A stretch of 64,000 nucleotides of DNA from Dictyostelium discoideum. Lineage: Eukaryota. The notes below the pieces were generated by a model. It was not told where the DNA came from, did no database searches, and was given only the letters and a program-made list of their open reading frames with translations. Location of the stretch: positions 2,496,001 to 2,560,000 of the forward strand of contig CM000155.2 in NCBI GenBank assembly GCA_000004695.1, read 5' to 3'. Shown here in pieces: positions 5,320 to 35,977 of the stretch. Each line of letters opens with the position of its first letter. Positions within the stretch are counted from its first letter, which is position 1. Position numbers and translations under genes: made by a program.

Positions 5320-10713
<5,394 letters not shown>

Positions 10714-10784
10714 AATAAATAAAAACGATATACATATTTATAAATTTTAAATTTTTATTATTCTTTTTTTTTTTTTTTACAATA

Positions 10785-27021: not shown

Positions 27022-29805
27022 TCTAGAAATAAAGTAGGTTTACAATTTAATAAACATAATTCTAAAGTATTTGAAATACTTTGTAAGATAATGTCATTAC
27101 CACAAAATCAACAAACTTTAATATTTATGAAATCATCATTAAAATGTTTTAAAAGTTGGATTTTATTTGATTGTTCACCAAGGTATGTTTTTTTTTTTTT
27201 TTTTTATTATTATTAAATAAATTTATTAATAATTTTTATTTTTTTTTATTTAGGGAATATTTAATTGATAGTGATTTAATTTTAAAATGTTTTGAAGCAG
27301 TTTCAAATAATCCAAAATTAGTTGAAGATTTTTTAATGGTTTTAGATGAAATGTTTACATTTATGGGTGGAAAGATATTTAGAAGTTATACATCGGCATT
27401 TAGTTTGGTTTTAAGTAGAATTTTGATGATTTTTCCATCATTTTACATTTTAGCATTACAAGAAGAGAATCAAATCTTTAATCAAATCTTTTTATTATTT
27501 TCACATATAGCAGAGAATCATATTAAAACCTTATTAAAGAATCCTGAACTTTCAAATAACTTTTTTAAAGCATTAATACAAATGGCATTAAAAGGTGATT
27601 TTGAAACATGTGAACTTTTATCACCTGTTATTACAGAGATTGCAGCTTTACACGAACTTCATTCAACATCATCAACAACAGAAGCAACAACAACTACAAT
27701 AGCAACAACAACTACACCAACAACAACATCTGATTGTGATATTAGTGGATGGTATCAATATTTAGGGGAAATGGTTGAAGTATTTAGATTGAAATCAATG
27801 TATCCATTGGATAAGGATATTTCAGACCTCTACGAAGAGGATGCTGAGAAATTCTTTGCATTTAGAGTTATAGCAGGTGATAGTGTATTAGAGGTGTACA
27901 ATATATTGGAGGGTAAAATATTACAACAACTACTCAATAGTCTTTGGTCGGATATTCAATCTTTCCCAACTACCAAATGTTGGCAATCTATTGAAGCAAC
28001 CATCTATCTATTAAGTTGTCTATCAGAGAGTATAACAGAGGATACAGAATTTGTACCACAACTATTCTCAATTTTAGGTCAATTACCAATTCAATCGACA
28101 CCACTCATTAAAAGTACAATGACTTTGGCAGGTAACTATTCAAATCTAATCGATAAAAGTACAATATTCCTTGAGAAGATTGTAAAAGATTTCTTCCCAG
28201 CTTTTGAAAATCCAGATTTAAAATCAGTTGCAAGTCAATCTTTCCTTTCAATCTCTAAAAATTCAAAATGTGCTTCAATACTTTCAAATAGTATTACTCA
28301 ATTAATTTCTTTATGTGCTCCAATTTTATCAAATAATGTAAAAAAAAAAAAATTATTATTTTTTTTTTTTAATTAAAAAAAATACAATTTAAACTAATTA
28401 ATTATATTAATATATATATAGAATAAAATTTTAGATGACCCATCAAATTTTAATATTTTAGAAGCTTTATTATACATTATATCAACATTACCATCAGATT
28501 CTCAAGTTTTAAATTATTCAACTCAATTACTTTATCCATTCATACTTTTTATTAAAAATTATTATACAAATCAACTGCAACAACAGCAACAACAACAACA
28601 GCAACAACAAACTGAATTACGATTATTATTATCATCAATTAATCTATTAACAAAATTCTGTAAAATATATGACGATGAGCAAGTTAATGAATATGGAACA
28701 ACGCAACAAGAAAATAATAATAATAATAACAATAATAATAATAACAATAATAATAATAATAACAATAATAATAATAATAATAATAATAATATTAAACCAG
28801 TTTTTGAAATTATTAACAATATAATACCGATTTATGGAGAGTTATTAAGTTTAAATACGTTAGAGAGTTCAATTATCGAAGCGATTAGTATATTTTATAA
28901 AAAAGCGATAATGATAAATAATAACCATCAAAATATAACAAATATACCAGAAATTAATAGGCAACTTACATTAGCATTTTTAAAACATAAACCATTAAGT
29001 TTAGTATTAAGTACACTTTCAATCTCAATAGTTAATTTACCAAAAGAACAACATTTAGATTTTTTAGCAGATTCATTATCCTCTATCTCTTCTAAAATGA
29101 TTCAAATTTGGAGCGAAAAATCAAATCAAAATAATAAAAAGAATAATAAAAAAATAAATAATAATATTGATATTGATAATGATAATGAAAATAATAATAA
29201 TAATAATCAAATTCAATTTGAAAATAATGAATTAAATGAATTTAAAAATTTAAAAATTTCAATTTATCCAGATATAACAAAGGAATATTTTACAATGATT
29301 ACACAGTATATAAGGTATAATGCTGTATCAATTCCTCAAGGAGTTATATCACATTTGTTTAGTATCATTTTAGTAAACATTACAAAGATACATGATAAAG
29401 TTACAGCACGTGCTTGCTTTTCATTTATGGCTTTGATAATCACAAAATCAAAAGAAATGAAAAGTCAAATCAAATGGGAACCACTATTAAATGAAATCAA
29501 TGGTTGGTTAAGTATTCATGGTGAACTATTTATTAAACAAATACTTTATTCCGCTGGTGGTGGTATACCAAGAAGTGTTGTACAATTTATTTCAGAGGTT
29601 ATAGCATCTTTAGTATCTTCGTATCCTGATGTATTTAGAATTAGTGCACTCAAATGTTTATCAGTTGATGGTTTCCCTTCAAGTAATATAACAAAAGAAC
29701 AAAAAGAGAAATTTTTAAATTCTTTAATGTTGTATAGATCAAAGAAATTACCTTTAAAAATTGTTACTGATTTTTCTTTAGTTTCTTTAGGTATTGCAAC
29801 AAATC

Positions 29806-29810
<5 letters not shown>
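26191..29810 (+). CDS. Importin-beta superfamily nuclear transport receptor, importin-13-like, about 1064 aa. Exons: 26191..26394, 26517..26878, 27027..27182, 27254..28337, 28422..29810.
   Basis: N-terminal importin-N region ...IQQWLIQFQKSFSSWSIAPLLLMSN|IKEIQYFGASTIENKIKNNW (importin-13 has PEIQYFGASALHIKISRYW). Long HEAT-like helical body and poly-Q/poly-N inserts in the last exon. Donors GTAATT, GTATTA, GTATGT, GTAAAA with phases 0,2,2,0 consistent across junctions. Confidence 0.75.
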
Positions 29811-29860
<50 letters not shown>

Positions 29861-30232
29861 TACATATAAAAAAAAAAAAAAAAAACAATATAATAAAATA
29901 AAAAATCAATTAAATCAAATAAAAAAAAAAAATTAAATAAAAAAGATAAATAAATAAAAAAAAAAATAAAAAATATTGTAACGATATAATACAATATCTA
30001 CCTGTTTTTATTTTATATCTCTCTTCGTCTCCCTTCAAATAATTTTGTTCTCGAGATCCCAACAATATCTCAATAAATTGAAACGATAAATTTGGTTTGA
30101 ATTTTGTTTTTTTTTTTTTTAATTGGATAGAAAAAAAAAAAAAGAAAAAAAAAAGGAATGAATTTATCAAAAATGATAGATTTATCTTTATTAAAAAAAG
30201 TATTGTGGAACATTGCCAATTTTGATCTTTCC

Positions 30233-30263
<31 letters not shown>

Positions 30264-30721
30264 ATTCATAATAATAAACTGAAATTGGTGTCTTTTCAAT
30301 TTAAAAAAGATAATGAATTGTTGTGATGAGCCATATTTGTAAATAAAAAAGATTTAAAATGGTTGTTGGGGGTATTTTTTAGTTTTTTTTTTTTATTTTT
30401 TCTTCAGATTTAAAATAATAAGATTATATTGTGATTGTATTGACGTCGACGTTATTTTGAAAAAAAAAAAAAAGTTTAAACTTGTTATTATTGATGAGAT
30501 ATTTTTTGTCAAATTAATAACATAATTAAAGTATTAAAAATAATTTTAAAAAGATAAAAATATTAAAAAAAATAAAAAAATAAAAAAACAAATAAAAAAA
30601 AAACATATAAATAGAGAGAAATGAAATTAATTTATTCATTAAAAAGTAAAAATTATTTATTTATAAAAAATCTAAATTTAAATAATTCAATAAAAAAAAA
30701 AAAAAAAAAAAAGTATAATAA

Positions 30722-30995
30722 ATGACAATTACAAGTAAGTTTTATATAAAAAATATATTAAATAATTTTATAATTAATTATTAAAAAAAATAAAAAAATA
30801 AATATAATAATAGGATCAATTTCATCGTTTAGCGGAATGACTTCCCCTCAAACAAACTCCAACCAACAAATTGTTTCAGATGTTGTTAATAACAACACAA
30901 AAAGAAATTCTATCCAATCAAAAAATGGTGTTTCTGAGACTTCTACTAAATTTGGTGATGTTACAGATAGTTCCCAACCATGTTCAATATTATGA
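30722..30995 (+). CDS. Small 64-aa Ser/Thr/Asn-rich protein ending in a CaaX prenylation box (CSIL). Two exons: 30722..30734 and 30814..30995.
   Basis: ATG in context aataaATGa. 13-nt first exon then a consensus donor GTAAGT at 30735-30740, a 79-nt AT-rich intron, acceptor aataatAG at 30812-30813, and in-frame continuation to ...QPCSIL-TGA. Protein: MTITRSISSFSGMTSPQTNSNQQIVSDVVNNNTKRNSIQSKNGVSETSTKFGDVTDSSQPCSIL. Confidence 0.5.
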
Positions 30996-31389
30996 AAACA
31001 TATTTAAAAAATATATCGATGTAAGAAAAAAAAAAAAAAAAAAAAAATATTTGTAAATATAAACAATAATAAACTATTTAATTGATGATCATATTATTTT
31101 ATTTATTTTTATTATGATAATTTGAGAAAACAAAAATATGGAAAATTTTTCAAAGATTTTTTTTTTTTTAATAATTATTATTTATTTTTATTTTTTTAAT
31201 CAGTATTATTTATTTATTTATTTTTTATTTTTTTAAATCATTTTACTTTTTTCAATTCTATAAAAATAAAATAAAATAAAATAAAATAAAATAAAATAAA
31301 ATGAAATTTTATTATTATTTTTTCCAAATTTTAGGAATATATTTAGTAATTTGTCAAAACAAAAAAAGGTTCAATTTAAATTCTTAATT

Positions 31390-31420
<31 letters not shown>

Positions 31421-31427
<7 letters not shown>

Positions 31428-32650
31428 GTATAACGAATTCTTGATGGTTGATATTGTAAAGTATAATCAATTCTTAATTTTAATTGATGAGCAAATTCAA
31501 TTGGTAAGAAAGGATTTCTAAGAAAAGCTCTACCAAACATTATTAAATCTGAACTATTTGATTCTAGGATTGATTCAGCTTCACTAGCAGTTGTAATTAA
31601 ACCAACAGAGGAAACTAATAATTTACCAGAACGTTTTAAAATTGATTGTTTAATTTCATGAGAGAATGGTACTTGGTATAATGGTTTTGAAGTAATCTTT
31701 TGTTTACTATTATTACCACCAGTTGAAACATCAATTAAATCAACATCTAATGATTCTAAAATTTCTGCTAATTTAATTGAATCATTTAAATCCCAACCAT
31801 TTTCATTCTCTACCCATTCATCAGCAGATATTCTAACAGCTAGTGGTTTTTCAGTTGACCAAACTGAACGAACTGATTTAACGATTTCAATTAGTAATTT
31901 AATTCTACCATCGAATGAACCACCACCATAAATATCGGTACGTTTATTTGAAGTTGATGAAAGGAATTGATTGATTAAGTAACCGTGAGCGGCATGGATT
32001 TCAATTAAATCAATACCAGCTTTAGCGCATCTTATTGCCGATTTCTTGAATGATTCAATAACATTTTCAATATCATTAATTGACATTTCAATTGGTATTG
32101 ACATTTTATCACTCCATTGGATTGACGATGGTGCATAAACATTCCAACCATTACCACTTGGATCATTGGTTGGAATTGAATTTGAATTTCTGGCACCTTC
32201 TAAAAACAATGGAATACTTGATCCTTTTCTACCTGCATGTCCAAGTTGAATACCAACTTTACTATCAAATTCATGTGAAAAATCAACAATTCTCTTTAAT
32301 CCATCAATTTGAGAATCTTTCCAAAGTCCTGCGTCGCCATATGTAATACGACCTTCTGGTTCAACCGATGTTGCTTCAATTATTACTAAACTTGCACCAC
32401 CTTTTGCAAAATTTGAATAATGACTAAAATGCCAATCATTAAAATATCCATCTAAACTTGAATACTGACACATTGGACTAACAACTATACGATTTTTTAA
32501 TTTTAAATTCTTAATTTTTAATTGTGAAAATAATTTTGGTTTATCATTTTTTTCATTTGATGAACTTGCATCATCAATATGATCTTGATTTACAATTGAT
32601 CCAGCTGATGTGTAGTTAGTTGGTTTATTAAATGTATATTTAAATTCCAT
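31421..32650 (-). CDS. NADPH dehydrogenase / NADH:flavin oxidoreductase of the Old Yellow Enzyme family (YqjM-type), 409 aa, single exon
   Basis: IVVSPMCQYSS..., ...HAAHGYLINQFLS..., GGS...R..., TIM-barrel OYE signatures throughout. N-terminal about 45-aa extension. Confidence 0.9.
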
Positions 32651-33993: not shown

Positions 33994-34449
33994 ATGCCAA
34001 GTGTTACAGTTGATTATAAAGTTTTTATGACTCATGACCATACTAATAATACCAGTATTGGAACTGATGGTTTAGCAACATGTATTGGTATCATTGCAAG
34101 ATTAAATAACGGTGACACCTACTGTGGTCACATTTCAAATGAAATTCAAGGAACCACTGCAAATTTACCAATCATTATGCAGAGAACTCAAACCATTATG
34201 ACTGCACGTTTAAATCCTGCCAATGTAATTTCAGTACATTGTGCAACTACAAGCACTTTTCCAGATACCAATGCAATGTATAATGCTATAGTTAATACTT
34301 ATCCAGGTTTAGTTCAACCAAAAATGGAAGGTACTGGTATATATTGGGATGGAAATGCAGTTGGTGTTATAAATGGATTGTATGATAATATTAATGGAAA
34401 TACTGAAGGTACAAATGATGATCAAGGTCCATTAAATGTCACTAATTGA
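33994..34449 (+). CDS. Orphan 151-aa protein, non-repetitive, with paired Cys/His motifs (GLATCIGIIAR...YCGHIS)
   Basis: Single ORF with good start context (ttaataaaATGc). No signal peptide and no low complexity. Not assignable to a family from sequence alone. Confidence 0.5.
   Translation: MPSVTVDYKVFMTHDHTNNTSIGTDGLATCIGIIARLNNGDTYCGHISNEIQGTTANLPIIMQRTQTIMTARLNPANVISVHCATTSTFPDTNAMYNAIVNTYPGLVQPKMEGTGIYWDGNAVGVINGLYDNINGNTEGTNDDQGPLNVTN

Positions 34450-34990: not shown

Positions 34991-35977
<987 letters not shown>

Follow-up and report, generated by a model that had tools for sequence, protein, structure and literature searches.

This study indicates that DDB_G0293112, a small gene of Dictyostelium discoideum, is probably a real gene and an outlying offshoot of the hssA/2C/7E/sigN family (PF05710). 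The gene, its exon structure, its expression profile and its place in orthology tables were already public. What is new is that this singleton, so far classed as 'unknown', carries the 5' signature of the family, which makes a relationship probable, and that this hssA/sigN outlier ends, judging from its last four codons, in a competent CaaX box. The periphery of the family may be larger than the approximately 96-100 genes listed to date. The conserved unit of the family appears to be a promoter-proximal module, comprising the 13-nt exon, the intron and the SISS start of exon 2, rather than the protein body.

Gene structure, annotation and expression

With regard to annotation, the 64-aa product was found to match exactly a protein in NCBI and UniProt (EAL60908.1, XP_629335.1, Q54C84) from D. 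discoideum AX4, whose public record, assigned to a 3.6-Mb contig, bears the title hypothetical protein. An earlier reading of the letters alone (the sequence-only reading) had proposed the gene as unannotated, which was wrong, since the identical protein was already public as DDB_G0293112. The gene model it proposed is the same as that of the public annotation, and its statements about the sequence all proved correct: a 13-nt exon 1, a GTAAGT donor, a 79-nt intron, an AG acceptor, a 64-aa product rich in serine, threonine and asparagine, and a CSIL end. The gene ID was absent from the main texts of papers in a literature search.

DDB_G0293112 is located on chromosome 6 between two convergent genes that are 1.6 kb apart. 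The first, ipo13A (importin 13), lies on the forward strand and ends at position 29810 of the window, that is, of the whole 64,000-nt stretch that was analysed; it encodes importin-13 repeats, and its name is taken from a published table. The second, on the reverse strand, has its 3' end at 31421 and encodes an old-yellow-enzyme-type flavin oxidoreductase with an Oxidored_FMN domain. A Ras-type GTPase ending in CLIL, a genuine CaaX GTPase, is encoded 4 kb from DDB_G0293112, on which it has no bearing.

The gene is on the forward strand. Its ATG at 30722 is surrounded by A-rich sequence, and a TAA in the same frame directly precedes it. The coding part of exon 1, ATGACAATTACAA (30722..30734), comprises 13 nt, which provide the codons M-T-I-T and the first base of codon 5. 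It is followed by a phase-1 intron of 79 nt (30735..30813; 3.8% GC), which runs from GTAAGT to AATAATAG, and by the coding part of exon 2 (30814..30995, TGA included; 182 nt, 33% GC). Exon 2 opens with a stretch encoding (R)SISSFSG (30814..30836), which forms, together with exon 1, an N-terminal motif of the family type. It closes with TGT TCA ATA TTA (30981..30992), encoding C61-S-I-L, the putative CaaX(L) box, and with the TGA stop codon (30993-30995). The spliced coding sequence of 195 nt gives a protein of 64 amino acids, MTITRSISSFSGMTSPQTNSNQQIVSDVVNNNTKRNSIQSKNGVSETSTKFGDVTDSSQPCSIL, followed by TGA. Without splicing, the reading frame ends after 20 codons, and splicing at the annotated junction is presumed from the canonical signals and the curated model. 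Among the signals that can be read from the sequence, and whose function is putative, are a candidate TATA box, TATAAATA (30606..30613, forward strand), situated 109-116 nt 5' of the ATG, and a candidate polyadenylation signal, AATAAA (31068..31073, forward strand), situated 73 nt past the stop codon. Further upstream are a palindrome, ACGTCGACGT (30443-30452), and a G-rich element (30360-30373).

The length of the reading frame is in itself no evidence for the gene, because 138 stretches of 60-99 codons in the window are free of stops, and a second frame is likewise open across part of exon 2. The composition of the sequence is more informative. Exon 2 is an island of 33% GC between flanks of 6-10% GC, and the boundaries of the island coincide exactly with those of the ORF. 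With a codon model trained on the long ORFs of the window, the annotated frame obtained a log-likelihood of +16.3 bits, and the other five frames obtained +5.0, -22.3, -59.6, -65.0 and -74.3 bits; none of 5000 mononucleotide shuffles matched the observed score. In addition, GC3 (0.20) is lower than GC1 (0.32) and GC2 (0.46) in the coding sequence. The coding signal of DDB_G0293112 thus exceeds chance.

The locus was also compared with a second D. discoideum assembly (GCA_054883475.1), which is 99.6% identical. The ORF and the coding sequence show no differences, exon 2 is unchanged, and the sole SNP within the gene, at 30802, falls in the intron. The newer annotation of this assembly does not call DDB_G0293112 despite the identical ORF. 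Given that it also mis-models micro-exon genes of the hssA/sigN family, its silence on DDB_G0293112 means little. As a practical caution, micro-exon genes of this kind are missing from, or wrongly modelled in, two recent dictyostelid annotations.

Published RNA-seq data from the time course of Parikh 2010, which Kin et al. 2018 (PMC6198379) tabulate in their supplement, show a sharp developmental pulse. The values for DDB_G0293112 are 0 at 0 h and at 4 h, 31.4 at 8 h, 462.3 at 12 h, 85.4 at 16 h, 34.6 at 20 h and 31.5 at 24 h. A value of 44.9 was recorded for prestalk cells and 6.5 for prespore cells, and the other cell types gave 10.9 (stalk), 1.6 (cup), 0.15 (spore) and 0 (vegetative) (PMC6198379). 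A separate table, from Luna and Chain 2021 (PMC8535579), gives a tau of 0.95, with expression highest at 12 h (358.9). The gene proposed by the sequence-only reading is therefore transcribed, both abundantly and specifically. DDB_G0293112 is a genuine, regulated small gene, silent in growth, with an expression peak at about 12 h (mound to tipped aggregate) and higher levels in prestalk and stalk cells.

These data bear on the view that the prediction of DDB_G0293112 is an artefact and the intergenic DNA at this locus non-coding. The frequency of chance ORFs of 60-99 codons in the window, the partly open second frame in exon 2 and the missing call in the newer annotation would fit such a view. 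Nevertheless, a rise from 0 in growth to 462 units at 12 h at a locus between two convergent 3' ends, together with the coding statistics and the canonical splice signals, makes it extremely unlikely, and the newer annotation mis-models micro-exon genes of the family as well.

Relationship to the hssA/2C/7E/sigN family

At the level of the whole sequence, DDB_G0293112 behaves as an orphan. No Pfam family matched the 64-aa protein at E<=10, PF05710 included, and the protein accordingly falls short of the PF05710 gathering score of 21.4 bits. A word-indexed homology search with the peptide returned only the peptide itself. A phmmer search against 1.84 billion representative proteins returned the protein itself and one artefactual match, and no protein of the hssA/sigN family. 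The artefactual match, a bacterial-type protein of 647 aa with an E-value of 7e-5, was rejected as not homologous: a unit of about 68 aa occurs in it five times in near-identical form, every copy matches weakly, and its E-value was discounted because it is summed over non-independent repeats. No relatives were found in a DNA scan of metagenome contigs, no Rfam family in the region 29700-31500, and no paralogue in the window by tblastn, nor does the window contain another 13-nt micro-exon of the 'MTIT' type. In a published five-species orthogroup analysis (OrthoFinder), DDB_G0293112 stands alone in OG0009762 as a 'lineage-specific gene', a term used there for a gene without orthologues, and has no paralogue (PMC8535579). 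Absence from the proteomes of sister species is weak evidence, because the annotations of other assemblies handle micro-exon genes poorly. The sequence-only reading had staked its proposal on conservation of the ORF and of its CaaX end, and, as far as this can be tested, the proteome and metagenome searches yielded no orthologue or paralogue.

The organization of the gene is, by comparison, familiar. A total of 96 D. discoideum genes related to sigN1, which encode proteins of less than 120 aa, were described by Vicente et al. 2008 (PMC2257962). In 89 of these 96 members, a 13-nt ORF in exon 1 is followed by one short intron and by a second exon with the remaining ORF; members with a 13-nt exon 1 have introns of 66-128 nt, and six listed members have an intron of exactly 79 nt (PMC2257962). 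The layout of two members, sigN173 and sigN181, is the same: 13 nt in exon 1, 181 nt in exon 2 and a product of 64 aa (PMC2257962). With exons of 13 and 182 nt and an intron of 79 nt, DDB_G0293112 has the gene structure of the family. It also shares the expression profile of the family, being developmentally induced, absent from growing cells and prestalk-biased; in particular, sigN7 and sigN12 display a matching pattern, off in growth with a pulse at 8-12 h (PMC6198379). DDB_G0293112 is not a recognised family member, and by curated criteria it does not belong to PF05710. No entry of the 96-gene list combines a location on chromosome 6 with a 64-aa product and a 79-nt intron (PMC2257962), and the dictyBase label of the gene is 'unknown', as opposed to hssA/2C/7E for the members (tables of PMC6198379).

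The feature that the sequence-only reading overlooked is the most informative one: the hssA/2C/7E/sigN family is recognised by a 13-nt exon 1 combined with MTIxxSISS. The N-terminus of the family can be written as M-[TA]-I-x-x-S-I-[ST]-S-[IFL]-G-N, with the intron after nucleotide 13, and the sequence MTITR-SISSFSG of DDB_G0293112 conforms to it. In the 5' hallmark common to DDB_G0293112 and the family, exon 1 contributes a 13-nt ORF with the start ATGACAAT, a phase-1 intron of about 80 nt follows, and exon 2 begins with x-S-I-S-S-(I/F)-x-G. As comparators we used only two genes of D. dimigraforme, two 5' ends derived from primers and the Pfam profile; the D. dimigraforme PF05710 protein and its locus were retrieved with an hssA-like sequence that served as bait only. 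In the first D. dimigraforme gene, ATGACAATCATGG precedes a GTAAAT donor and a 68-nt intron, and the AG acceptor is followed by CT TCA ATC TCT TCA ATT GGA AAT, so that the product starts with MTIMASISSIGN. The second gene begins with ATGACAATT, and its AG acceptor is followed by CC TCA ATT TCA TCA ATA GGT AAT. In DDB_G0293112, exon 1 and its GTAAGT donor are followed, after the intron and its AG, by GA TCA ATT TCA TCG TTT AGC GGA. The first 8-9 nt, the exon length, and the phase and position of the intron are the same as in the D. dimigraforme genes, and SISS (residues 6-9) is kept with synonymous codon differences. Moreover, the 11-mer TCAATTTCATC occurs at the same exon-2 offset in DDB_G0293112 and in a D. 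dimigraforme PF05710 gene. The primers for two D. discoideum family members show the starts ATGACAATCATTG and ATGGCAATTATTG, each followed by G at the exon boundary.

The strength of this N-terminal similarity was estimated with chimeras, in which a single family body received various 12-residue N-termini; each construct was then scored with the curated PF05710 profile. The body lacking its 12 N-terminal residues scored 57.7 bits, and the native N-terminus, MTILASISSIGN, raised this to 83.0 bits (+25.3). With the N-terminus of DDB_G0293112, MTITRSISSFSG, the chimera scored 70.3 bits (+12.6) and was aligned from profile position 1. Ten composition-matched shuffles gave 56.5-61.4 bits (mean 58.6, sd 1.6; -2.1 to +2.8 around the mean), and two unrelated N-termini gave 56.4 and 60.1 bits. 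Residues 1-12 of DDB_G0293112 thus contribute about 12.6 family-specific bits, which is about half of what a native N-terminus provides and exceeds the shuffles by about 7 sd. For the most part, this signal does not depend on the match in exon and intron structure, on gene size or on the expression programme.

The remainder of the gene carries no such signal. Residues 13-39 scored 44.8 bits against PF05710, compared with 45.2 and 38.8 bits for shuffled versions. The eight C-terminal residues added 0.3 bits, within the range of their shuffles (-1.0 to +0.6) and close to a C-to-S version (0.0), compared with +5.2 for a native tail. Past nucleotide 13, the likeness of the exon-2 DNA to family genes is at the level of dinucleotide shuffles. 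Three more detailed connections were consequently rejected. The tetrapeptide 'NSIQ', which is found at a similar position in family members, was not retained as homology, since the middle region scores like its shuffles; the cysteine at -4 is not a relic of the CGC[NH] motif of the family, as the tail chimera gains no more than its shuffles or the C-to-S version; and an origin through frameshift or decay of a family gene is contradicted by the absence of DNA likeness in exon 2 past nucleotide 13. With body, tail and exon-2 DNA carrying no signal, the case for a family link comes down to about 12 residues, together with where the intron lies, the size of the gene and its expression pattern.

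The same negative results could suggest that DDB_G0293112 is an independent orphan gene, whose 13-nt exon and MTI..SISS start arose by coincidence from a Ser/Ile-rich composition and A/T-rich codons. This reading agrees with the lack of PF05710 similarity of the whole protein, with the absence of family similarity in body, tail and DNA, and with the absence of the gene from curated family lists. However, N-terminal shuffles of equal composition add about 0 bits, compared with 12.6 for the real order, and exon length, intron phase, position and length, total size and expression programme all agree with the family, which makes coincidence very unlikely. We infer that DDB_G0293112 descends from the hssA/sigN family.

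The predicted peptide and its possible roles

The 64-aa peptide consists of 53% S/T/N/Q, with only 3 glycines and 1 cysteine among its 64 residues. It shows no hydrophobic segment (maximum Kyte-Doolittle value of 0.45 in an 11-residue window), and neither a signal peptide nor a transmembrane segment is present in its sequence. AlphaFold2 did not provide a confident fold (mean pLDDT 58.5, pTM 0.18): the only helix of the model, residues 20-37, is of low confidence, and pLDDT is below 70 throughout. Peptides predicted from this product are NGVSETSTK, SISSFSGMTSPQTNSNQQIVSDVVNNNTK and FGDVTDSSQPC. Q54C84/DDB_G0293112 is absent from the supplements of a 2026 life-cycle proteome, which is a weak negative because a 64-aa protein yields few tryptic peptides.

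With its aliphatic a2 residue and terminal leucine, CSIL is formally valid as a CaaX(L) box, as the sequence-only reading had proposed. Its accompanying statement that the product has no G-gamma or GTPase domain is borne out by the Pfam search. The chance expectation for C-x-[ILV]-L ends is about 3 per 13,000 proteins at the amino-acid frequencies of the window. Ahead of the box stands DVTDSSQP, a run of acidic or neutral residues that includes no polybasic stretch and no second cysteine; in plants, GGTase-I is reportedly helped by a polybasic domain adjoining the box. CSIL is treated here as a predicted, competent geranylgeranylation box that is possibly fortuitous.

One view of function, that of the sequence-only reading, takes the box as the selected part: the gene would exist for a small geranylgeranylated peptide, acting as a membrane-tethered adaptor or as the precursor of a lipid-modified signal that a CaaX protease would process before export, on the pattern of fungal a-factor. 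CSIL obeys the CaaX(L) rule and also forms the end of Arabidopsis AGG2, which is prenylated in vivo (PMC3508898). D. discoideum itself geranylgeranylates a small CaaX protein, the G-gamma subunit, at Cys66 (PMC6219514). The lack of a signal peptide or transmembrane segment would bring the peptide into contact with cytosolic GGTase-I, and a sharp, cell-type-biased pulse of expression is what would be expected of a developmental signal. Against this reading, no orthologue or paralogue was found in which the box could be seen to be conserved, the box falls within the chance expectation given above, and DVTDSSQP offers neither a polybasic stretch nor a second cysteine. Precursors of the a-factor type are farnesylated, with X other than Leu, and the protein is absent from the proteome supplements. 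We therefore consider this reading improbable, and the idea of a lipopeptide signal or adaptor is speculation.

Should the peptide be made, the following sequence of events can be proposed. The gene is transcribed from its own promoter at 8-12 h in prestalk-biased cells, the 79-nt phase-1 intron would be removed, and translation would yield a disordered peptide of 64 aa rich in Ser, Thr and Asn. Lacking a signal peptide, this product would be cytosolic and would meet cytosolic GGTase-I. According to the box rules, CSIL would most likely be geranylgeranylated by this enzyme, -SIL trimmed and the cysteine carboxymethylated. Without a second signal, polybasic or palmitoyl, attachment to endomembranes would probably be weak. 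From the hssA/sigN family, the offshoot would have retained the promoter-proximal module as well as small size and expression programme, on an unrelated body that is S/T/N/Q-rich, is predicted to be disordered and lacks the Gly/Val-rich hydrophobic C-terminal domain of the family with its Cys motifs. In its boldest form, which we regard as quite improbable, DDB_G0293112 would be the first lipid-anchored hssA/sigN derivative: geranylgeranylated at C61, tethered to prestalk membranes or released at the mound-to-tip transition at 12 h, and serving as a species-specific cue or adaptor. If true, this would provide a single-copy, non-redundant experimental handle on a family of about 100 genes whose function has resisted genetics.

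Another reading holds that the transcript is what matters, or that nothing is selected: DDB_G0293112 would be a young, lineage-specific unit with an inherited promoter and 5' end of the family type, its ORF would be translated poorly or neutrally, and any function would reside in the RNA. Published work on the family lends itself to this reading, as a frame-shifted hssA still suppresses the target mutant, which points to action at the RNA level (Kin et al.), and no phenotype was reported on deletion of 13 sigN genes, or of six other members singly. The gene is moreover a species-restricted singleton (PMC8535579), and its peptide, which is predicted to be disordered, was not detected in the 2026 proteome supplements. 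Nevertheless, the exact coincidence of the exon-2 GC island with the ORF, the coding-like codon usage and GC3 periodicity, and the retention of SISS through codons that differ synonymously from those of family genes speak against it. No Rfam family was found in the region, and little weight attaches to the absence of a 64-aa protein with few tryptic peptides from the proteome. We regard this reading as somewhat unlikely. Both this reading and that of a prenylated peptide concern function, and they are compatible with descent from the hssA/sigN family.

Comparison with known systems

Fungal precursors of the a-factor type resemble the predicted product of DDB_G0293112 in that they are short and that a C-terminal CaaX box is the sole recognisable feature. 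They are farnesylated, with X other than Leu, measure approximately 36-38 aa, undergo N-terminal processing and rely on dedicated ABC export. In contrast, the DDB_G0293112 product has 64 aa and Leu at position X, which predicts a geranylgeranyl group. To our knowledge, there is no lipopeptide system of the a-factor type in dictyostelids.

Substrates of GGTase-I with a CaaX(L) box, such as AGG2 (CSIL) and the Ras-type GTPase of the window (CLIL), share with the DDB_G0293112 product a cysteine at -4, an isoleucine at a2 and a terminal leucine, and the product is likewise a small, presumably cytosolic protein. Unlike these substrates, it has no G-gamma or GTPase domain and no polybasic or palmitoyl second signal, and its prenylation is only predicted.

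The closest counterpart is the hssA/2C/7E/sigN family (PF05710, 'Coiled'; sigN1-sigN14, hssA, SRCP1). Both have a 13-nt exon-1 ORF beginning with ATGACAAT, a single phase-1 intron (66-128 nt in the family, 79 nt in DDB_G0293112) and x-SISS-(I/F)-x-G at the start of exon 2. In both, the product is smaller than 120 aa, Ser-rich and known only from Dictyostelium, and the gene is silent in growth, induced in mid-development and biased towards prestalk and stalk cells. DDB_G0293112 differs in lacking the Gly/Val-rich hydrophobic ('pseudo-amyloid') C-terminal region, through which SRCP1, the one characterised family member, acts (PMC8741877). Furthermore, it has one cysteine only, whereas the family has CGxC...CGC[NH] motifs, and it ends in a putative CaaX box and gives no match to PF05710. 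As a single-copy outlier with a CaaX end, it offers a cheap test case for whether the mini-genes act as peptides or as RNAs.

Annotation of genes with a 13-nt micro-exon

This analysis revealed that genes with a 13-nt micro-exon are mishandled by recent dictyostelid annotations. The annotation of the second D. discoideum assembly (locus L002, GCA_054883475.1, 11652-11930) contains no gene call for the 64-aa ORF DDB_G0293112 (window 30722-30995, + strand). In D. dimigraforme (locus L001, GCA_054859025.1, 10001-10727), the hssA-like protein P0003 was assigned a false upstream exon, although an exon 1 typical of the hssA/2C/7E/sigN family (ATGACAAT...) precedes exon 2 of this gene by approximately 85 nt. 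This locus carries a pair of divergently oriented hssA-like genes, located at 9440-9780 (-) and 10395-10727 (+). In one of them, exon 2 contains a 1-nt frameshift, and in the other, exon 1 is apparently 14 nt long, with an extra T within a T-run. These defects could reflect either pseudogenes or indel errors in the assembly.

We also considered P0002, an additional match to the target peptide in the exhaustive phmmer search, as a possible relative. In this protein of 647 aa, a unit of about 68 aa (...EIAKELRIGRNTVRNIISELGGLSP.KAKFG..VADAYSPEDIARIR...) occurs five times in near-identical form. It was rejected, as its E-value of 7e-5 was reached only through the summed repeats, and it has no relation to the target locus.

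Assembly differences and neighbouring features

Comparison of the two D. discoideum assemblies across window 29700-31500 showed only three differences, none of which falls inside the target CDS: a SNP in the target promoter (30445), a SNP in the target intron (30802) and a long T-run whose length is changed by 7 nt (31391-31397). The spacer between the 3' end of the target and that of the flavin-oxidoreductase gene contains a tandem (AAAAT)n repeat (31262-31303). A single-exon ORF of 151 aa (33994-34449, + strand), for which no Pfam match was found, is annotated as a gene in the second assembly. A bona fide CaaX(L) protein, ending in KKKKQCLIL, is encoded just 4 kb away from the target by a Ras GTPase gene with four exons (34991-35851, - strand), which we take to resemble RasD.

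Candidate promoter elements upstream of the target

A perfect GC-rich palindrome of 10 nt, ACGTCGACGT (window 30443-30452), which may represent a transcription-factor site, stands out from otherwise very AT-rich DNA approximately 270 nt upstream of the ATG of the target. The palindrome is broken in the second D. discoideum assembly, where the G at 30445 is replaced by an A. A G-rich element, TGGTTGTTGGGGGT, is located further upstream, approximately 350 nt from the ATG (30360-30373). G/C-rich GBF-like motifs have been reported for sigN promoters (PMC2257962).
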